The notes beneath the pieces are model-generated. The model ran no database searches. It was given only the letters and a program-made list of their open reading frames with translations, and was not told the DNA's origin. DNA of 29,329 nucleotides from a virus (Duplodnaviria > Caudoviricetes): IMG/VR virus record IMGVR_UViG_3300032319_000282, positions 1 through 29,329 of that record; one strand, given 5' to 3'. The number at the start of each line of letters is the position of its first letter. Within the stretch, counting starts at the first letter, position 1. The position numbers were made by a program, and so were the translations under genes. Positions 1 to 15,461 of the stretch are shown here, in pieces.

Positions 1-3000
1 GATTGAGCAAAAAGATATCCTCTTGAATTATATTCGTTTGGTAATAATGAACCGGCTCTAGGATAATCACTAGTTAATCTATCTAACGATTGATACTTTT
101 GAGCGTAAAATCCATTAACAGGTGGTGTTGTCACCCAATCATTAGTTTGTTTTCCAAAAAGTGTATATCCTCCGGTTTGAACTTTCCATTTATAATTTGG
201 AACTATTTGTGATTTATTAGGTATATAATCATAAACAAAAGAATTTGTATTTGTGTTATATCTTATTATTCTCATTGGGGATATAAAATCCCTAACTTGC
301 ATATCTTCAGTTGTTGATTCGAAAAAAATACCCATCATTATATTATTAGCACCGAATCCCGCCGCGATTAATGCAGGATTAGTTCCCGTACTATCATAAT
401 AATCGGAATCAAAAGGTATCACACCTATTTGACTATTAATTGCAGAAGATTGAGCAAAATCGGCATCAACTCTATATCCTTTAGAACCACCACGACTAAA
501 AAGTTTTTTAATCATATCTGTACTCAATAATGAACGCCAAAAATTAGTATCTATCACTCTAATAATTGAAAAAAAGTTTATCATATCAGATAAATCAGTA
601 TATGATGTTTGAGATATTTTTTTCATATTATACCCATAATAATTAGGACTCAAAATTATTTCTTTTAAGAATTCATCTCTAGGTCCTAAATTCATTATTG
701 TTGTGGGAGTTTTTATATCAAAATAATTAGCACCTCTATCAGTGTCGCCATTAGACTGAGCACCAACAAATCTATAAGAACTTAAAAATTTTTCAGCCGG
801 AGATGAACGATAATAAAAATTATTTGTTTCATATTGTAACATAACAGTTTCAAAAGGAAACTTACGTTTATAAACTTGATTTAATTTATTATAATACGTA
901 TCAACCTTAAAAGGAAACGCATATAAATTACCATTAACCCAATTATTAACAAAAACATTAGATAAAACACCTTGACACAAGGCATAGAAAAATCTAAATC
1001 TTAAAACATATTCAGACCATCTTGTAATATCATTATCCGATTTCGGGTTAAATAACCCTTTTAAGGGTTCTCTAACAAACACATAACATCCATTTTCAAC
1101 CGCATCGGTATTTGTACAATTACTACTGACACCAAAATTTATACCATTTCCTGAATAGCAATTAAACTGAACCATTCCCGCACAATCAAAAGTATTCAAT
1201 ACCGTTCCATAAAATGCGTTGTTCCCCGATAAAAAATCACCCGTATTATACTGAGGAGAACTAATTCCTCCACCAACCGTCAAAACACCACTATCGGTAA
1301 AGATATACATATTTTGTTTGGGGTTTTGATTCATCATTGCAACATTATTATAATTAGTATACGCAGTACTACCTGTTGAAAATAATAACAATCCATCCGA
1401 TGACGGTAATCTATCGGACCTCATAACAATATTATTTTTATCCGACATGTTTGTCGTATATCCAGTTGGATATATAAAACTAAAATAAAGTTCTTGTGGT
1501 GTAGTTTGATTAATACCATTACCAGGGGCGCCATAACAACCATCCCCCACGCCAGCAATTCCAGGTTTTGTCATATACATAAAAGTACCTCCAACTAAAG
1601 AATCTTGTGTAGAATATTTTTGAGGAATATTAGTATTTGAAAACAAATAATTATTCGAATTAGAAGTAATATCTTTAGAACTATTATTATTGTTATTTAA
1701 GATAACTTTTCCACTAATACTTGTATTTCCCGCATTTGTTGGGTCAATCACATAATTTAATGTTGTGGTATCTAAAGCTGAGTAATATCGTGTTAAATTT
1801 GTTGTATATCCTGAATACTGATTACTTGGTGTAAAAAAATATGATGGATTCCAAAGTTTTTGCCCATTATTAACCGTTAAATTATCATTTGCCAATCTAT
1901 GGATATAACATAATTCATTACCAATCGAACCACCAATGGTTGGGTCAATATTTCTAATAGGTATATTTAATCTAAGTGAAGTATTTACTTGAACACCATT
2001 TATATTACTAAACCCTAAAAGTTTTCCCAACCCTACTTTTGTTGGATATTTTGGTGAATATGGGTCAACACCTCTTTGAGCAATATATATTATCGAATTA
2101 TTATCAATATAATCTATATTTTTAGTAAGGTGTGAGCAACTAAATAATTGATATCTATCAATAACATATTGAATACAATAATCGGTTTGGTACCAAGTTC
2201 TTTTTATTATATTAGTTTTACTTTCAATTATATCAGCCAAAGTGTTCGGTAATGGGGTTGAAGCTTGTAGATTTCTAAACTGCGTAATTGTCATTCCAGT
2301 CACAACTTGGAAATATTCTATATCACTAGAATATTGATAAGTTTTTTCGTCGGTGCTAGCACTAGCCGTTAGAGCATACGTTACAGGCGCCTCATTACCA
2401 ATTCTAGTATTTGTTTTACCATAAATTATTGTTACCGAAGTTTTACCTGTATCTGTCGTACCTGTAATTGATTTAGTACCAAAACTATTTAGAGTACCTC
2501 CTGTTATATTAGGGTCTTTAGAATTTTTTGGACCAACAAAACTAAACATAGAGCCAGCACCTAAATCCCCATATGTACCTGCCTGCCCAATAAACACAAT
2601 GACATTATCTAAATGTTGTTTATTACTATTTGTAGGTATATTTGGTTCTATTTGTAGTGATATTTGATTAGTTCCATTATAGTAATTCGCTTTAGTATTA
2701 AACTGATTTAATCTCTCACCAAATGGCATATTATCAGTATATAATGTAGAATAATAATCACTTCCAATAATTTCAAAGTAAGTATATAACTGAACCCCAT
2801 AGTTTGAGTTATATTTTTTTAGATTGCCAGATAGTAATTGAAGAACTAATATATAATCATAATCTTTATAAAAACACCCATTACCACCAGTACGTTCTTG
2901 ATGTAATTGTGGAAAATCATCGGTAAATTTAACTTCTAAAACATCTGAGTATACTCCTAAATTAGCAAAATTGACCAATAAACCACTATTACTACCTGCG

Positions 3001-4952
3001 TTTGCGGTTGAAGATTGTGCCGACGATAACGTGCTACCCCCATTATCATCACCACTACAATCACAAACATCACAATCAGGATATGTTATCATCGGTAATT
3101 TTAGTGGTGGAAAATCATAATCTATTAATCTTGCAAAAACAATTATAAGGGCAATTGCAATTCCTAACCATAAAAGTAACATTACTGAATAGTATATTAC
3201 ACCCGCAACCCAAACTGTCGCACCAAAACCTATTGATGGTGTTGCCGCCGCAATTATACCTAATGTCGATTGAACTATATTATATCCCGCCCATAATTCT
3301 AAAAAAATAAAGAAAAATACTTTTAACCAACTTTTCCAAAGATAAGCTATTAAACTATATAAAATTATTAAAGGTAATCCAATAATACCCAAAATAATCA
3401 ATAAAAAATTAAAAACTCTCCATATTAAACTAGTATGAAAAACCCCATCATTTACGGGATACCTATTAGCAACATCTTCGCAGGTATCGTCGTCAATTCT
3501 TTTAATACCAATAAATTTTTCTTTATTATTTGCGATTTTATAATTATCAATAAATGAAGATACTGTATAAACCTTGTTGTATTCGAACTCATAAAAATAA
3601 TCTTCACAATTTATTATGTCTTGAATATCAGGATTAGTAATACTTACACTACCATTAGTATACGCTGACCAATCTAAACTAAATGCATACGATTTCTGAA
3701 AATCTAACCAATCAGGGTCAGTTTCGTAATTCGGATTAACAAATTGAATAACCGTTGGGTCAAACCCTCCATTCCATCCTCGTTCCTTAACATTAGGTAC
3801 TAAATAATATCCTCTTTTATAATCTTCGGATACACTAGTACTTTGTTGCCATTTAATCTTAAATCTATATTTTGCCTTTGTTGGAACTCCTACCGAAGGG
3901 TCATTAGATAAAACCTGTTGTCCAAATTCATTTGTAAACACATAATCCTGATTCATCGGTAAATCAAATAACCAAGCCCCCGCAGAATCTATTAATTTAC
4001 CACCATTTGGTAAATCAGCTCTTTCAATTATAGGTAATCCATTAGAATCTCTATAAATTGATTGTGTTAGTCCAATGATTTCACCAGGACCCGTAATTAA
4101 CTTACATAAATCACCCGTTGATTTTTGAGCAATACCGTTTGACTTTACTGCCGACTTTTCATTAGAACTCATTAAAGACCCCATGAAAATTGAGGTGGGT
4201 TGTATATCAATATTTGCTTCACTTGTTAAATCGAAATCACTTCTTGTAATCCCAATTTGACACACATCTTTTTCACCCCAAAATGGGACAATCTCAATTG
4301 TTTTATTAATTACAATAATTTGTGGTAATTGATTAAAATTTGATGATGATTTGAACTTCACTCCATCAAATTGTTCTTCGGTTGCAACACCCATCCTTAC
4401 TAAATCTTGAGGTGTTAATGAAAATTCACCAATATCTGATAAATCAACATTCATCACAATTGTTTGAGTTCCAACAGGAACACCAAAAATTAAAAAGTCA
4501 CCACTGTCGTTAGTTGTTACAGTATATTTATAATACTTGTCATATAATTCTACAACAGTTTGATTTACTAAGGCATCTAATCTTGTTGGAAAGGTACCTG
4601 TTGGTACGTGATTAGTATATGATGGAACATATGGTAATAAATTATATCTATAACCATCTTCATTAGTTTGTTCTAAATTCTTATAAGGATATATAGAAGA
4701 GATTACAGGATTATCCTCATCTTCGGGCTTAATTGGAATAAAAATTGAAAGTTTGGCATTTGGAATACCGTACCCGTTATTTGCAAAAACTCTTCCCGCA
4801 ATAACTCCATAATCAGAACACATTCTAGTGTAAACATCTGATTGTCTTATTTTTAAAGACAGAACTTCTAATTGCTCAAAATCTTGTTCTACTTTAATAA
4901 CAATATTTTTGTCATCTCCAGGAGTTGTCCTTATTCTATACGATTGACCCAT
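1..4952 (-). CDS. Large putative virion/baseplate-associated protein (>1650 aa, C-terminus beyond the left edge), with an N-terminal carboxypeptidase-regulatory/prealbumin-like fold and an internal multi-TM segment
   Basis: Not in the ORF track, consistent with no stop inside the window. ATG at 4952 reads MGQSYRIRTTPGDDKNIVIKVEQDFEQLEVLSLKIRQSDVYTRMCSDYGVIAGRVFANNGYGIPNAKLSIF...TVTTNDSGDFLIFGVPVG, and the same frame is still open at the edge (...NSRGYLFAQ). Hydrophobic run at about 3130-3430. TATTTATA box 13 nt upstream. Lies directly after the baseplate wedge gene. Confidence 0.8.
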   Translation of the reverse strand, partial: MGQSYRIRTTPGDDKNIVIKVEQDFEQLEVLSLKIRQSDVYTRMCSDYGVIAGRVFANNGYGIPNAKLSIFIPIKPEDEDNPVISSIYPYKNLEQTNEDGYRYNLLPYVPSYTNHVPTGTFPTRLDALVNQTVVELYDKYYKYTVTTNDSGDFLIFGVPVGTQTIVMNVDLSDIGEFSLTPQDLVRMGVATEEQFDGVKFKSSSNFNQLPQIIVINKTIEIVPFWGEKDVCQIGITRSDFDLTSEANIDIQPTSIFMGSLMSSNEKSAVKSNGIAQKSTGDLCKLITGPGEIIGLTQSIYRDSNGLPIIERADLPNGGKLIDSAGAWLFDLPMNQDYVFTNEFGQQVLSNDPSVGVPTKAKYRFKIKWQQSTSVSEDYKRGYYLVPNVKERGWNGGFDPTVIQFVNPNYETDPDWLDFQKSYAFSLDWSAYTNGSVSITNPDIQDIINCEDYFYEFEYNKVYTVSSFIDNYKIANNKEKFIGIKRIDDDTCEDVANRYPVNDGVFHTSLIWRVFNFLLIILGIIGLPLIILYSLIAYLWKSWLKVFFFIFLELWAGYNIVQSTLGIIAAATPSIGFGATVWVAGVIYYSVMLLLWLGIAIALIIVFARLIDYDFPPLKLPMITYPDCDVCDCSGDDNGGSTLSSAQSSTANAGSNSGLLVNFANLGVYSDVLEVKFTDDFPQLHQERTGGNGCFYKDYDYILVLQLLSGNLKKYNSNYGVQLYTYFEIIGSDYYSTLYTDNMPFGERLNQFNTKANYYNGTNQISLQIEPNIPTNSNKQHLDNVIVFIGQAGTYGDLGAGSMFSFVGPKNSKDPNITGGTLNSFGTKSITGTTDTGKTSVTIIYGKTNTRIGNEAPVTYALTASASTDEKTYQYSSDIEYFQVVTGMTITQFRNLQASTPLPNTLADIIESKTNIIKRTWYQTDYCIQYVIDRYQLFSCSHLTKNIDYIDNNSIIYIAQRGVDPYSPKYPTKVGLGKLLGFSNINGVQVNTSLRLNIPIRNIDPTIGGSIGNELCYIHRLANDNLTVNNGQKLWNPSYFFTPSNQYSGYTTNLTRYYSALDTTTLNYVIDPTNAGNTSISGKVILNNNNNSSKDITSNSNNYLFSNTNIPQKYSTQDSLVGGTFMYMTKPGIAGVGDGCYGAPGNGINQTTPQELYFSFIYPTGYTTNMSDKNNIVMRSDRLPSSDGLLLFSTGSTAYTNYNNVAMMNQNPKQNMYIFTDSGVLTVGGGISSPQYNTGDFLSGNNAFYGTVLNTFDCAGMVQFNCYSGNGINFGVSSNCTNTDAVENGCYVFVREPLKGLFNPKSDNDITRWSEYVLRFRFFYALCQGVLSNVFVNNWVNGNLYAFPFKVDTYYNKLNQVYKRKFPFETVMLQYETNNFYYRSSPAEKFLSSYRFVGAQSNGDTDRGANYFDIKTPTTIMNLGPRDEFLKEIILSPNYYGYNMKKISQTSYTDLSDMINFFSIIRVIDTNFWRSLLSTDMIKKLFSRGGSKGYRVDADFAQSSAINSQIGVIPFDSDYYDSTGTNPALIAAGFGANNIMMGIFFESTTEDMQVRDFISPMRIIRYNTNTNSFVYDYIPNKSQIVPNYKWKVQTGGYTLFGKQTNDWVTTPPVNGFYAQKYQSLDRLTSDYPRAGSLLPNEYNSRGYLFAQ

Positions 4953-11338: not shown

Positions 11339-12328
11339 TTATTTTTTCTTTTCCTTTCTTGTTAATTTTAGAAATGGTTTAAGGAAGTTAATCCAAGCAT
11401 TGTCGTCTTTCGGCAAGTACTTGAATAATCCGTCAGCCATCATCATCTTCATTAGATTTTTATATCCCCTATCCGTAGGGTCAATTCTTTCTTTATAAAC
11501 TTCCTCAACTAATACTTTAGCCTCATCTGTAATTAGTGGGTTTCCTAAATCAATTATTTTTAGATTTGTATTATAAAACTCTTCACCAAGTATACCATTT
11601 TTTGATTCACCAGTCAAAATTTTACCAATAATTTTTGGAACTTTCTTTTCCTGCCCGATAATTCGTGCATTATCCAAGATTTCGGTGATAGTGCACGATT
11701 TCTCCTGCAACATAGGGAATAACTTAACCAAAGTTTTTACGCCAAGTCCATCAATACCTGAAATATTATCTGACGTATCACCAACAAAAACTTTTGTTAA
11801 TAACACATTTTGATGGGGAATATCAACTTTATCAAGTGATATCATATCACCTAATTTATAGTATTCTTTCTTAATAGGATAGTAAATTTGGACTCTTTCT
11901 GATATGAGCTGTGTAAAGTCCTTATCTCCTGAGAATATGGTTATATTCTCATCTAATGCAATCTTACAATATTGTGCTATTAAATCGTCAGCCTCATTAT
12001 GGGGAACTTCTAATTGTCTTACAAACACTTCTTCTAAATATTGTTTTACACGTCGTCTTTGGTGAAGGTAGGACTCCTCTTGGTCTTCACTCATCTCGTT
12101 TCTTCTTTGACCCTTATAGTTGGGGTATAACTCTCGTCTAACCGATGTATTGGTCTCACTATCCCAACAAACAATTACTTTATCGTAATTATGTTCTTCT
12201 AAAAACTTCCGTATTGTATTAATGAAGTGATATATTCCTCCGATATGATTATTACCTGAGAATAAATCCCTAACCCCCTCATATCCAATTTTGTAGAGAT
12301 TGTTTCCGTCAATTAAAAATGTTTTCAC
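11339..12328 (-). CDS. 5'-3' exonuclease / flap endonuclease (PolI 5' nuclease, T4 RNase H, T5 D15 family)
   Basis: LIDGNN, VCWD, RRELYPNYKGQR, EADDLIA, SGDKDFTQL, H3TH motif GDTSDNISGIDGLGVKT; GTG start. Confidence 0.92.
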   Translation of the reverse strand: MKTFLIDGNNLYKIGYEGVRDLFSGNNHIGGIYHFINTIRKFLEEHNYDKVIVCWDSETNTSVRRELYPNYKGQRRNEMSEDQEESYLHQRRRVKQYLEEVFVRQLEVPHNEADDLIAQYCKIALDENITIFSGDKDFTQLISERVQIYYPIKKEYYKLGDMISLDKVDIPHQNVLLTKVFVGDTSDNISGIDGLGVKTLVKLFPMLQEKSCTITEILDNARIIGQEKKVPKIIGKILTGESKNGILGEEFYNTNLKIIDLGNPLITDEAKVLVEEVYKERIDPTDRGYKNLMKMMMADGLFKYLPKDDNAWINFLKPFLKLTRKEKKK

Positions 12329-12367
12329 TTAACCATTTGTGTGGTGATAAAATATTGTTTCTAATTA

Positions 12368-12396
12368 AGTATAGTTGTTAGTTATAGGTAAGTCAA
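12368..12396 (-). promoter_or_regulatory. Sigma70-type promoter TTGACT-N17-TATACT for the exonuclease-helicase-nrdJ unit
   Basis: -35 at 12391-12396, 17-nt spacer, -10 at 12368-12373. Confidence 0.72.
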
Positions 12397-12398
12397 TT

Positions 12399-13514
12399 TT
12401 ATTTTTTTTCTTTACCATTTTCTTGAGTCGCGTATTTAATACCCATAATTGTTCCTACAATTGAAAACGCATTTGTTAACAATACACTAAACATATTACT
12501 CCAAGTTGAACCAATAATTTGCGTTTCCTTTCCCATCACAATTGCCATCCAATAAAGAGAAGTTGTTACAAGACCCACACCTATTATTACCGATAATGCA
12601 CATTTAACTATTATTTTTATTAACTCACTTTGACTCTTTTTCATCACCACATCCAAGTCATTCAAAGCTGCATTCTTTTCTATTTCTATAGAATCTTTAA
12701 GTTTCTTTGAATTATCTAACTCTAATTTCAAATCTTTTGTTAGTGTTTCTATTTTATTTTTACTGATAACAGTTTCAGTTATATCAGTAGCAATTTTAAT
12801 TACACTTATAACATTTCCTTTACTATCTAAAATGGGATTATACGTAGCTTGTAAATAAATAACACTACCATCCACTTTTTTTCTTTCTACCACACCTTCA
12901 AAAAACTTACCACTTCTTAAGGTATCCCAAAATATTTTATATTCATCTGACTTTGAATACTCATAACTAACAAAGATACTATGATGTCTCCCGACTATTT
13001 GATTTTTTTCGTTTGGTTTATATCCCATCGCTTGTAAAAACAGAGTGTTCGCATCTAAAATGAATCCATCAACATTAAAAGTAATACTTGCCGTACTTCT
13101 GTTAATCGCTTCTAATTGTTTTTTACTATTCGCAATTGCCGTAATGTCAGTAGCGACTTTCATTATTTTAGTAATCTTACCACTATCGTCAAAAATAGGA
13201 TTGTATGTCGCTTGTAAGTTGATAAGGGTACCATCTTTTTTTATTCTTTCAAATTCCCCTGAATAATACTTACCACTTCTTAAAATGTCCCAAAACTTTT
13301 CATACTCCGATGACTTTGCATAATCTTTACATACAAAGATGCTATGGTGCTTACCAATAAGTTCATTATATTCATCAACTTTATACCCCATCGCCAACAA
13401 AAAAATGTCGTTTACACCCAAAATGATACCTCCTAGGTCAAAATAGATAATGGCATTACTTCTATTAATGCCCTCAAGCCGGCTTAATAGCTCTTCTTTA
13501 GATAAGTTTTTCAT
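12399..13514 (-). CDS. Tandem PAS/PAC domain protein with coiled coil and two C-terminal hydrophobic helices; no output domain
   Basis: Two copies of the MCP/BdlA-like PAS pattern (IL.AN..FL.AMGY....GxHHSIFV......EY..FWD.LRSG......R.K.DG..I.LQATYNPI.D..G......K.ATDIT), then a heptad-like segment, then IIVKCALSVIIGVGLVTTSLYWMAIVM and MFSVLLTNAFSIVGTIMGIKYA. Confidence 0.88.
   Translation of the reverse strand: MKNLSKEELLSRLEGINRSNAIIYFDLGGIILGVNDIFLLAMGYKVDEYNELIGKHHSIFVCKDYAKSSEYEKFWDILRSGKYYSGEFERIKKDGTLINLQATYNPIFDDSGKITKIMKVATDITAIANSKKQLEAINRSTASITFNVDGFILDANTLFLQAMGYKPNEKNQIVGRHHSIFVSYEYSKSDEYKIFWDTLRSGKFFEGVVERKKVDGSVIYLQATYNPILDSKGNVISVIKIATDITETVISKNKIETLTKDLKLELDNSKKLKDSIEIEKNAALNDLDVVMKKSQSELIKIIVKCALSVIIGVGLVTTSLYWMAIVMGKETQIIGSTWSNMFSVLLTNAFSIVGTIMGIKYATQENGKEKK
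12775..13480 (-). repeat. Internal tandem duplication encoding the two PAS domains
   Basis: Similarity is visible in the DNA, e.g. acttaccacttcttaaggtatcccaaaa (about 12905) versus acttaccacttcttaaaatgtcccaaaa (about 13268), and tatcccatcgc versus taccccatcgc. Confidence 0.75.
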
Positions 13515-13531
13515 AGGTTAGTTTACTTTAT

Positions 13532-13539
13532 TATAAATA
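13532..13539 (-). promoter_or_regulatory. TATTTATA box for the PAS gene, inside an imperfect palindrome (13522-13555)
   Basis: Minus strand reads aaTATTTATAataaagtaaactaacctATG. Confidence 0.6.
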
Positions 13540-13581
13540 TTTTATAAAAAGTAAATAGTTAATTAAAAAAATAATTTAATT

Positions 13582-13610
13582 AAAAAACCCCTCTTTAAGG
13601 GAGGGGTTAA
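13582..13610 (-). terminator. Rho-independent terminator after the HNH gene
   Basis: Minus strand AACCCCTC-ccttaaa-GAGGGGTT followed by TTTT, just after the stop at 13614. Confidence 0.85.
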
Positions 13611-13613
13611 TTT

Positions 13614-14231
13614 TTAATTTAGTATCTTATTACTCTTCTTTAAGTTTTCCTCCGCCCATAATGGTTGGAGATTTGTGTAATGACAGAGTTTATAAAGTTC
13701 TTCTTCTGTCTTTGCGGATGATAATGGGACTATGTGGTCAATGTGCCATTCCGTTCTGTTTTCCCAACTCATTCCCGAAACAAACTTGTTTTCCAAATGT
13801 TCCTTTAATTCTTGTGGTGTACAACCGACAATTTCAGAGGTTCTTTTTGATTTATACTTTAAATATCTATTAACAGAATGTCTCATTTTTTCAAGTAAGG
13901 CAAATAAAATATCCTCTCTTCTTCTATTTTTTAAATATTCATTTATGTAACCCGGATTATTATCCCAAAATCTTTTTCTTTTCGCCAATACTTTTTCATA
14001 GTTCTCCACTTCCCACACTTTCCTATAATCTTGATAATATTTTTTATTTTCAGAGTTCCATTTATGATTGTATTCTTTAATCTTTTCTTTGTTTTGTAAT
14101 TTATATTTTTTAGTTTCTACTCTTTGACATTCTCTACAATAACTTCTAACTCCACATTTAACTTTAGACATTTTATTGAATTCACACAATTCTTTTTCTT
14201 CTTTACACTTACTACAAACTTTTGTTTCCAT
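13614..14231 (-). CDS. Free-standing HNH endonuclease (putative homing endonuclease) with N-terminal Zn finger
   Basis: CSKC...YCREC at the N-terminus; WHIDHIVPLS...LCHYTNLQPLWAEENLKKSN HNH core. Confidence 0.9.
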   Translation of the reverse strand: METKVCSKCKEEKELCEFNKMSKVKCGVRSYCRECQRVETKKYKLQNKEKIKEYNHKWNSENKKYYQDYRKVWEVENYEKVLAKRKRFWDNNPGYINEYLKNRRREDILFALLEKMRHSVNRYLKYKSKRTSEIVGCTPQELKEHLENKFVSGMSWENRTEWHIDHIVPLSSAKTEEELYKLCHYTNLQPLWAEENLKKSNKILN

Positions 14232-14373
14232 TTTTTATATATTCTTTCAATAGTTTATTAACTAGTGAAGAAAGATTTATTGATTTATCTTTAAAGTATT
14301 GTGGTAATTCAGGGTCAACCGAAATACCTATTTTAACTTTCTTTTCAATTTCTTTAATTTTATTTCTTCCCAT
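14212..14373 (-). CDS. Small ribbon-helix-helix-like DNA-binding protein (53 aa, below the track cut-off)
   Basis: MGRNKIKEIEKKVKIGISVDPELPQYFKDKSINLSSLVNKLLKEYIKNGNKSL*: beta-strand KVKIGISVD, then helix A, then helix B NLSSLVNKLLKEY. Ends TAG TAA, overlaps the HNH start by 20 nt, and has its own TATTTAT box. Confidence 0.72.
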   Translation of the reverse strand: MGRNKIKEIEKKVKIGISVDPELPQYFKDKSINLSSLVNKLLKEYIKNGNKSL

Positions 14374-14378
14374 ATATA

Positions 14379-14385
14379 ATAAATA
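14379..14385 (-). promoter_or_regulatory. TATTTAT box for the RHH-HNH cassette
   Basis: Minus strand reads gaTATTTATtatatATG. Confidence 0.55.
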
Positions 14386-14425
14386 TCTACAAATTAATAA
14401 AAAGTGGAATTATTATAACTTTTTT

Positions 14426-15418
14426 TTATTCTGTTATTTCCGGTTCATCACTTTCTTCAAGTTTTATTTCTCCATCTCCTCCAAGTATTGCATTCCAATA
14501 TTGTGAATAATCTTTTTTATATGTCTCCAAAGCTTCTTTCGTATCACTAATGAATCCTTGCGGAACCGCTATTAACTTCGTATCTTTATAACCTAAACCA
14601 TTTACGTGATTTTTAAGTATAGATACTTTTGTTCTTATCGCATAAGACACTGTTCTTCCATTTTTAGTTGCCGTAATATGGTTAATTCCCGCACTTGCTT
14701 GATTACCGAAAAGAAAAACTAAACTAGCCGACAACCAAACACTATTACCTCCCTTACTTTTTATAGTAGGTTGACCAAAGGGATTATCTGGTAGAGCCAC
14801 CCATGGTTGGTTTATTACAACAAGGGTATTGTAGTAGGGGTAATCTTCTTTTTTTGATTTGGAAATTCTAGAATGTATTCCCATACCAATCTTGTCCGAT
14901 AAAACTTTAGCATTATGCATTCCCCCACCTTTACCATCAAACGTCATTTGACAGGGTAAACTTCCGATTGAGTCCCAAAAAAATGCTAAGCTATATGGTA
15001 AATCCCCTTTTTCCTGTGCATCTAACAATTCATTAATATAATCAGTTGCCTGCTCAATAGTATCAAAACTATCGTTAAAAAGGAAATCCCCATCCCAAGT
15101 TCCGTCCGTTTCTTTTTTCGCATTTAAACCCAATTCAACTGCATGTTCAAAAGACCATTTTTTTTCTGTAATGATAAAAACAGGTAGATGTCCTTTTTTT
15201 TGGGCACTTACCGCAGCTAAAATCATTGCGGTTGTCTTACCTGCATTTGAATGACCTAACATCATTGATATTCCACCCAATACAGGACCTGGTAATCCAC
15301 AAGCGTCATAAAATGCTTGTCCGCAGTTATAAAACTCGGTTTCTTTATATTTTGTTTTTGTTGAGAACTTATCCTTAATACTTGATAATGATATCTCTTT
15401 TTTCTTAATTCCTGCCAT
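14426..15418 (-). CDS. recA: RecA/UvsX-like recombinase (start revised to ATG 15418, 330 aa)
   Basis: Walker A GHSNAGKTT, FIITE, Walker B FFWDS, VINQ, KSKGG, LKNH. The track's GTG start at 15457 falls inside a terminator hairpin. Confidence 0.85.
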   Translation of the reverse strand: MAGIKKKEISLSSIKDKFSTKTKYKETEFYNCGQAFYDACGLPGPVLGGISMMLGHSNAGKTTAMILAAVSAQKKGHLPVFIITEKKWSFEHAVELGLNAKKETDGTWDGDFLFNDSFDTIEQATDYINELLDAQEKGDLPYSLAFFWDSIGSLPCQMTFDGKGGGMHNAKVLSDKIGMGIHSRISKSKKEDYPYYNTLVVINQPWVALPDNPFGQPTIKSKGGNSVWLSASLVFLFGNQASAGINHITATKNGRTVSYAIRTKVSILKNHVNGLGYKDTKLIAVPQGFISDTKEALETYKKDYSQYWNAILGGDGEIKLEESDEPEITE

Positions 15419-15431
15419 AAATTTAATGATT

Positions 15432-15461
15432 AAAAAAGGGTGAGGTTTTATCCCCACCCTT
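15432..15461 (-). terminator. Rho-independent terminator between the ssb and recombinase genes
   Basis: Minus strand AAGGGTGGGG-ataaaa-CCTCACCCTT followed by TTTT. Confidence 0.8.

Follow-up and report, generated by a model that had tools for sequence, protein, structure and literature searches.

What does a phage gain from a pair of PAS sensor domains that run, within one chain, directly into a hairpin of two predicted membrane helices, and on what would such a protein act? The question is raised by a 371-aa open reading frame in a 29,329-nt stretch of DNA from a virus of the Caudoviricetes (IMG/VR record IMGVR_UViG_3300032319_000282), hereafter the window. The window, part of the genome of a large myovirus-like phage, encodes baseplate J, gp25, a class II ribonucleotide reductase, DnaB, a 5′-3′ exonuclease, RecA and a gp32-like SSB, all on the minus strand. 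Of the sequencing runs in which the stretch occurs, most bear a freshwater or lake label, and since the nearest cultured baseplate relatives, from Flavobacterium and Microcystis phages, are at only 27%, a Bacteroidota host is a guess. To our knowledge, how phages match the time of lysis to host physiology is understood for few systems, namely T4-type lysis inhibition and the transcriptional switches of temperate phages. The reading that we favour for the present gene, with a probability of roughly 0.55, is that its product is made late and would adjust the moment at which the host lyses to a signal in the cytoplasm, probably of flavin or redox type.

Two PAS domains, a stalk and a predicted hairpin

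The gene and its parts are as follows.

12399..13514, minus strand: PAS-PAS-stalk-hairpin gene, 371 aa (ORF call, domain matches, homologues, AlphaFold2 model)
13140..13454, minus strand: PAS domain 1, about residues 21–125 (Pfam, PAS structure comparison, model, alignment)
12777..13091, minus strand: PAS domain 2, about residues 142–246 (Pfam, PAS structure comparison, model, alignment)
12627..12776, minus strand: helical stalk, residues 247–296, a predicted coiled coil (spacing count, model)
12537..12626, minus strand: predicted transmembrane (TM) helix 1, about residues 297–326 (hydropathy, conservation)
12426..12524, minus strand: short loop and predicted TM helix 2, residues 331–363, nearly invariant (alignment, pN/pS)
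12402..12425, minus strand: short charged tail with the end GKEKK, variable in sequence (pN/pS, alignment)

The open reading frame is real and intact. PAS_3 (E 2e-23) and PAS_9 (E 4e-22) of Pfam each match it in two stretches, NCBIfam matches the PAS part and leaves the hairpin unmatched, and an AlphaFold2 model (mean pLDDT 78, pTM 0.38) has two PAS folds, a continuous helix over residues 246–327 and a return helix over residues 332–365. The order PAS-PAS-coiled coil-TM-TM-basic tail (GKEKK), which had been read from the letters, is borne out by ORF call, Pfam and model, as is the absence of the usual outputs of such sensors, neither Pfam nor NCBIfam giving a match to an MCP, kinase or GGDEF/EAL domain in the 371 residues. 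Single-PAS versions of about 250 aa exist among relatives. Membrane insertion of the hairpin is a prediction: in a Kyte-Doolittle profile of 19-mers TM1 peaks at 2.4 and TM2 at 1.34, the latter being amphipathic and marginally hydrophobic, and basic residues lie on the predicted cytoplasmic side of both helices (a positive-inside bias). A homodimer model of residues 246–368, run without folded controls, scored 0.00 against a mark of 0.42 and counts neither for nor against self-association.

The best 120 of 6050 matches to the protein are 365–396 aa long, with 98–100% query cover and 78–100% identity. Most of the named homologues among them bear the automatic name methyl-accepting chemotaxis protein; an MCP domain is absent from the Pfam lists of these best 120. 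The C-terminal 121 residues have a relative encoded in 507 of the 529 IMG/VR stretches that matched a sequence pattern. Short homologues of 81–194 aa are nearly all contig-end fragments and not stand-alone hairpins. One relative, L146:370-1475, has the PAS-hairpin gene in two frames, an apparent frameshift that is either an assembly error or a real break.

The hairpin core is the most constrained part of the gene. Among 81 distinct full-length genes pN/pS is 0.026 for residues 331–364, 0.065 for residues 1–20 and 0.16–0.24 for the PAS domains, stalk and TM1, so that the core is constrained 6–9 times more than these last; pS is 0.53–0.74 along the whole gene, synonymous sites having diverged everywhere. 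Residues 331–364 are unchanged in all 101 aligned homologues. In a set of 50 more diverse hairpins TM2 is conserved on every face (mean 0.94) and carries a polar/glycine stripe (N340, T347, N348, S351, G354, T355, G358), and TM1 has one conserved and one variable face. From this we infer that TM2 is an inner helix, packed on its own copies or on a partner.

The closest solved relatives of the two sensor domains, by sequence and by fold, are the PAS domains of MmoS and Aer (3ewk, 8dik), the Trp of Aer aligning with W196 and that of MmoS with W75. In FAD-type PAS domains the F-alpha Trp is the primary determinant of FAD, according to the available part of PMC10468136, and the F-alpha Trp of its FAD-binding clusters 4, 9 and 14 is present and invariant in both domains here. 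Trp75 and His57 of PAS 1, and Trp196 and His178 of PAS 2, are unchanged in 101 of 101 homologues, the match of the two histidines to the FAD-motif His of that paper, as far as its available part goes, being uncertain. For both PAS domains FAD is a predicted ligand and no more, since Glu stands in place of the motif Asn in each (E89, E210); the signal is probably cytoplasmic and of flavin/redox type. The likeness to the FAD-type sensors MmoS, Aer and NifL, and to the tandem PAS of BdlA and McpS, lies in the conserved F-alpha Trp and in the closest solved PAS folds (PMC10468136 and PMC8694187, available parts), the latter source reporting both BdlA PAS domains as predicted to bind FAD. The 371-aa protein differs from all of these in that it lacks an MCP, kinase or EAL/GGDEF output and has Glu for the motif Asn; with MCPs of the BdlA/McpS type it shares tandem N-terminal PAS domains but not the C-terminal MCP signalling domain. 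Heme is a further cofactor associated with BdlA.

Other inputs to the same hairpin

In other phages the same hairpin ends a protein of another kind. An operon at L161 (4138-6585) comprises genes for a histidine kinase with two PAS domains, for a lone receiver and for a protein in which a domain, here called X, is followed by stalk and hairpin; X has no family match above cut-off. This relay is also present in L378:2196-4929 and in other loci among L206-L365, sometimes with two kinases. There are 548 stretches in IMG/VR related to the L161 receiver, and in 79 of 80 fetched loci the X-hairpin gene is at most two genes after the receiver, the exception being cut by the contig end. Stop and start overlap in 140 of 154 pairs, the H-box is intact in every one of 109 kinases, and so are the DD/D/K motifs in every one of 85 receivers. 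Phage histidine kinases are already annotated in UniProt; a description of the hairpin, the relay or the fusions was not found in the literature searched, though the gene tables of huge-phage surveys could list the genes.

The stalk is kept in register. Between X and the hairpin Trp six spacings occur, from 99 to 141, all 1 mod 7 (94 of 94 distinct proteins), and the spacing from PAS to hairpin is 98 aa in 216 of 219 scored proteins (two further ones stood outside the scoring), the remaining three spacings being 98+121, with the second repeat missed. With a looser anchor, the heptad rule held for 7 of 11 distant representatives. Conservation of the heptad register is what a signalling coiled coil would need. 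A GAF-hairpin fusion (P0245) forms a cluster of seven members, and the hairpin also occurs without any PAS. Two single-member clusters, P0253 and P0354, have different PAS types on the hairpin; they are possibly chimeric and serve as leads only. Longer fusions of the X domain (393–2000 aa) were absent from 110 candidates, which is weak evidence. Because the inputs are interchangeable, the stalk is locked to the heptad and the constraint is extreme, the hairpin is best taken as the signal output. The original prediction was right that there is no kinase in the gene, but it overlooked that, of the PAS pairs compared, that of a phage sensor kinase is the nearest, and that a relay stands ahead of the same hairpin elsewhere.

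The relay operon and the 371-aa protein share hairpin, stalk end and the PAS type of the kinase, and can fill the same genomic slot (below); they differ in that the relay would hand its signal on by phosphorylation, to another protein that has the X domain, and not within one chain. In a midpoint-rooted tree of 59 hairpin rows dereplicated from the loci, the PAS-fused hairpins are one group (100/99) whose sister is the X-hairpin of L161/L206 (97/96). In a PAS tree of 38 rows, for which the regex missed some repeats, the first PAS of the soluble phage kinases of 474 aa falls in one group with the PAS repeats of the hairpin fusions (support 96). The trees have about 110 columns and a bootstrap that had not settled. 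Among those compared, the kinase of the L161/L206 type of operon has the closest PAS pair (55–56%), the L161 kinase itself being 55% identical over 260 residues. The PAS-hairpin protein is probably a one-protein short cut that arose from the relay by loss of kinase core, receiver and X domain, and the simplest history would be a single internal deletion that turned three genes into one; as the root is by midpoint only, the direction of this change is the one that we infer.

The hairpin appears to be phage-specific. When 185,579 prokaryote species genomes were scanned with a sequence pattern it came up on 4 contigs, all in MAGs and each with an endolysin gene at most two genes from the hairpin gene, and none of 400 other genomes from the phylum of G009 was matched by a profile of the X-hairpin; the architecture is hence no common one of bacterial chromosomes, which would have counted against the original prediction. 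In GenBank phages there are matches in the PAS region only (4 records) and the X-hairpin protein is unmatched, among plasmids the C-terminal part is unmatched, the ESM Atlas gave no usable match with residues 250–371 as query, and Pfam, PHROG, NCBIfam and PADLOC hold no family that matches the hairpin. A profile search of 1.84 billion representatives gave 115 matches, the longest at most 371 aa; chimeric-looking ones (e.g. P0242, P0244, P0266, P0270) were left out of the counts. P0239, named with the short homologues, is of the X-hairpin form.

The slot between the RecA-like gene and the exonuclease gene

In the window the gene stands alone as one cassette of an array (12329-14425) that has counterparts in L375-L394. 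The elements of this slot are these.

14426..15457, minus strand: RecA-like gene, upstream flank of the slot (annotation, locus comparison)
13614..14373, minus strand: second cassette in the slot, a 53-aa ORF and an HNH/endonuclease VII-like gene (annotation, locus comparison)
13586..13608, minus strand: terminator-like hairpin that closes the upstream HNH cassette (sequence; the same element separates cassettes in relatives)
13532..13539, minus strand: TATTTATA box, predicted late-type promoter element of the 371-aa gene (motif position)
12368..12396, minus strand: sigma70-like promoter TTGACT-17-TATACT, downstream of the 371-aa gene and pointing into the exonuclease gene
11339..12328, minus strand: 5′-3′ exonuclease gene, downstream flank of the slot (annotation, locus comparison)

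Most of the cassettes inspected in close relatives consist of a terminator of the AACCCCTC..GAGGGGTT type, a TATTTAT box and a gene. That the present one is a self-contained unit had been foreseen, and the terminator-like hairpin (13586-13608) and the sigma70-like site (12396-12368) are where they were then placed. The −10 of the exonuclease promoter is invariant in all 8 aligned loci whatever the slot contains, its −35 varying in the first base only, and this promoter marks what these loci suggest is the fixed downstream edge of the slot. The 53-aa ORF (14212-14373, minus strand) overlaps the start of the HNH gene and by eye is like a small DNA-binding protein; similar ORFs of 53–59 aa are ahead of HNH in L375, L386 and L389.

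Counted as a bare 8-mer, TATTTATA occurs 10 times in the window where 8.45 are expected, which is no enrichment. Of 101 ORFs in the relative G001, which has a 97%-identical copy of the gene, 30 have TATTTAT in the 45 nt ahead of them; among 2401 coding windows of that length, 22 contain it. It precedes 5 of 8 structural ORFs versus 1 of 10 for DNA metabolism. This positional enrichment and the bias to structural genes make late expression likely, and the sharing of the box with virion genes that the original prediction had claimed is upheld by them and by the box at 13532-13539. TATTTAT is also ahead of the 371-aa gene in L001, L002 and L004.

The contents of the slot change from phage to phage. 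Of 80 exonuclease loci recA is visible in 59, and there the slot is empty in 39 and holds HNH or other cassettes in the rest. Close relatives have a PAS-hairpin gene in it (L001, L003, L383, L384, L390, and L379 as a cut-off end), a complete kinase-receiver-X-hairpin relay (L378, with an exonuclease 95% identical) or an X-hairpin (L387); in L375-L377, L380 and L381 it is filled by 84-aa 2-TM and 103-aa membrane families typical of lysis cassettes, and some close relatives have in it neither PAS-hairpin, nor relay, nor these membrane genes. Its other occupants include a 331-aa ORF that by eye is methyltransferase-like (L419) and, in L388, a protein of 156 aa for which a signal peptide is predicted. 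In one freshwater DNA run there are contigs with the gene and also one from which 12382-13581 is missing (25 nt on its short side, likeness 85); this hints, if weakly, at the coexistence of gene-bearing and gene-free forms. Two lake metatranscriptome assemblies hold short contigs 99% identical to the gene at depth 2–5, which as contigs cannot show transcription. That the gene is optional, exchangeable with the relay and constrained away from lysis genes supports a self-contained function in trans; the same facts limit how far an argument from lysis-gene neighbourhoods can carry. Elsewhere in the window, an open-ended ORF of 1650 aa (3-4952, minus strand) has a TATTTATA box and an internal hydrophobic stretch at about residues 510–610.

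Lysis-gene neighbourhoods and the possible output

The argument for lysis comes from the relatives. After 20 same-contig duplicates were dropped 140 loci remained, dereplication at 95% reduced these to 75, and 63 had enough flank. An endolysin gene (GH19, lysozyme, M15 and PG-binding types were counted) is at most three genes from the PAS-hairpin gene in 55 of the 63, as against 4 of 466 control positions, the endolysin profiles having been built from those same loci. Gene order varies widely among these neighbourhoods, and the endolysins belong to four families. In 47 of the 63 a member of an unclassified 87-aa 2-TM family is present, and in 19 a recognised holin. The former family (72–100 aa, two TM helices; L030:9297-9560 and 95 other loci) is very diverse, is the commonest neighbour of PAS-hairpin genes and is a candidate for the holin of those phages. 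Relay operons are near an endolysin gene in 30 of 55 loci. In the window no lysis gene is present among the annotated ORFs, none was found in G001 (134 kb, 46% complete), and a GH19 query in five close-relative records and the 87-aa family in five gave none, the records being 3–64% complete.

How might such a protein influence lysis? It would be a one-component sensor anchored in the membrane. The PAS domains would bind FAD and the protein would dimerise or oligomerise; a change in the PAS domains would travel down the stalk and reorient the polar TM2, which would open or shut a small leak or free a grip on a membrane partner, and holin triggering would then come earlier or later. The protein would be an optional modifier and not the holin. 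Of the claim that it couples host state to a membrane action, the output-like hairpin favours the coupling and the neighbourhoods of relatives make lysis timing the best-supported target, the weak point being the window itself, with no lysis gene among its annotated ORFs. A wider proposal is more tentative, and we give it slightly less than even odds: large freshwater phages may own a pathway whose output is a gated membrane hairpin and not transcription, and which sets lysis from the redox/energy state of the host via plug-ins (relay, PAS or GAF fusions) that are swappable at one slot.

The hairpin need not serve lysis at all. A signal-gated membrane effector with another job, such as superinfection exclusion, killing of co-infected cells or late ion balance, would be found among lysis genes because late membrane genes gather there, and lysis clusters may indeed simply collect such genes. 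This agrees with a gene that in the window is alone in a moron slot with its own late-type box, with relay loci of which only 30 in 55 are near an endolysin, and with a TM2 conserved on all faces whose polar stripe is like that of a pore lining; pores made of a sensor plus two TM helices are known in defence (Cap1; bioRxiv 10.1101/2025.11.13.688252, available part). However, an endolysin within three genes in 55 of 63 PAS-hairpin loci, across many gene orders and four families, tells against such a role, as does the lack of a PADLOC match, and we regard it as the strongest of the alternatives, though unlikely. Less probable again is that the target is some conserved membrane protein of the host, for example a membrane protease or an enzyme of envelope synthesis, which the hairpin would bind and inhibit under the control of the sensor. 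Near invariance of the hairpin, set beside the great diversity of the 87-aa 2-TM family that is its commonest neighbour, would suit some other, constant partner, and the hairpin can leave the lysis genes and stay conserved, but self-assembly accounts equally well for conservation on all faces.

A further alternative, put forward in the original prediction and extended there to biofilm signalling, is a decoy or sink: tethered to the membrane by a hairpin that is a mere anchor, the protein would divert the PAS signalling of host chemosensory systems. The PAS type is like that of soluble chemoreceptor PAS pairs, and the automatic MCP names of most named homologues point the same way. An anchor constrained 6–9 times more than the PAS domains, stalk and TM1, hairpins found without PAS, and a stalk that keeps its heptad register all speak against the idea, which is left without support and which we consider very improbable. 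As for a truncated MCP or kinase remnant without function, the probable origin by deletion from a kinase operon and the split gene of L146 are what could be cited for it; full-length homologues, 507 IMG/VR stretches and strong purifying selection rule it out for practical purposes, as would have to be so if the first reading of the gene was to stand.

The favoured reading, a late-made modifier of lysis timing, has partial parallels. In T4 lysis inhibition (holin T, antiholin RI; PMC11413866) and ICP1 lysis inhibition (PMC7182436) a phage accessory protein shifts lysis timing at the membrane on a signal; in the available parts of these sources superinfection provides the signal and the periplasm is where the antiholin works, whereas here a predicted cytoplasmic PAS pair or phospho-relay would be the sensor. 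Homology to the lysis-inhibition proteins of T4 and ICP1 was not found. VqmA has a PAS domain. As described in the available part of bioRxiv 10.1101/2021.04.15.439952, VqmA of vibriophage VP882 is likewise a phage sensor that reads a host signal and times killing, but it is a transcription factor that starts the lytic programme via qtip, and the 371-aa protein is without a DNA-binding domain and ends in a membrane hairpin. Cap1 of type III CRISPR resembles it in layout, with a domain that binds a ligand and two TM helices attached to it, the ligand gating a pore; systems of this type are bacterial and anti-phage, with CARF-like cyclic-nucleotide sensors (bioRxiv 10.1101/2025.11.13.688252, available part), while the present protein is phage-encoded, has PAS inputs and is only a candidate pore. 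With a CARF/SAVED sensor absent, no PADLOC match and a phage context, it does not belong to the Cap1 type.

With class II holins, which the original prediction invoked together with abortive-infection effectors, the predicted hairpin would share two TM helices and a charged C-terminal tail, the hydrophobicity of TM2 being marginal; such holins are encoded with an endolysin, a context seen in 55 of the 63 dereplicated relatives and not in the window. The hairpin is without detectable homology to holin or defence families (none to holins in Pfam or PHROG; HHalign probability below 6% against 8 neighbouring families), and neither assignment is supported.

As a single chain of 371 aa the sensor-hairpin is a small and expressible test object, for which PAS deletion, shifts of stalk register and swaps of GAF, PAS and X inputs are already present as natural variants. 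If it does gate lysis, hundreds of freshwater phage contigs encode an undescribed readout of host energy state, which would bear on burst size and on the release of nutrients, and the hairpin would be a new kind of gated module in the membrane. In some phages polyphosphate kinase 2 and a TonB-dependent receptor are encoded near the hairpin gene (L024:4210-5304, L088:7440-9686).
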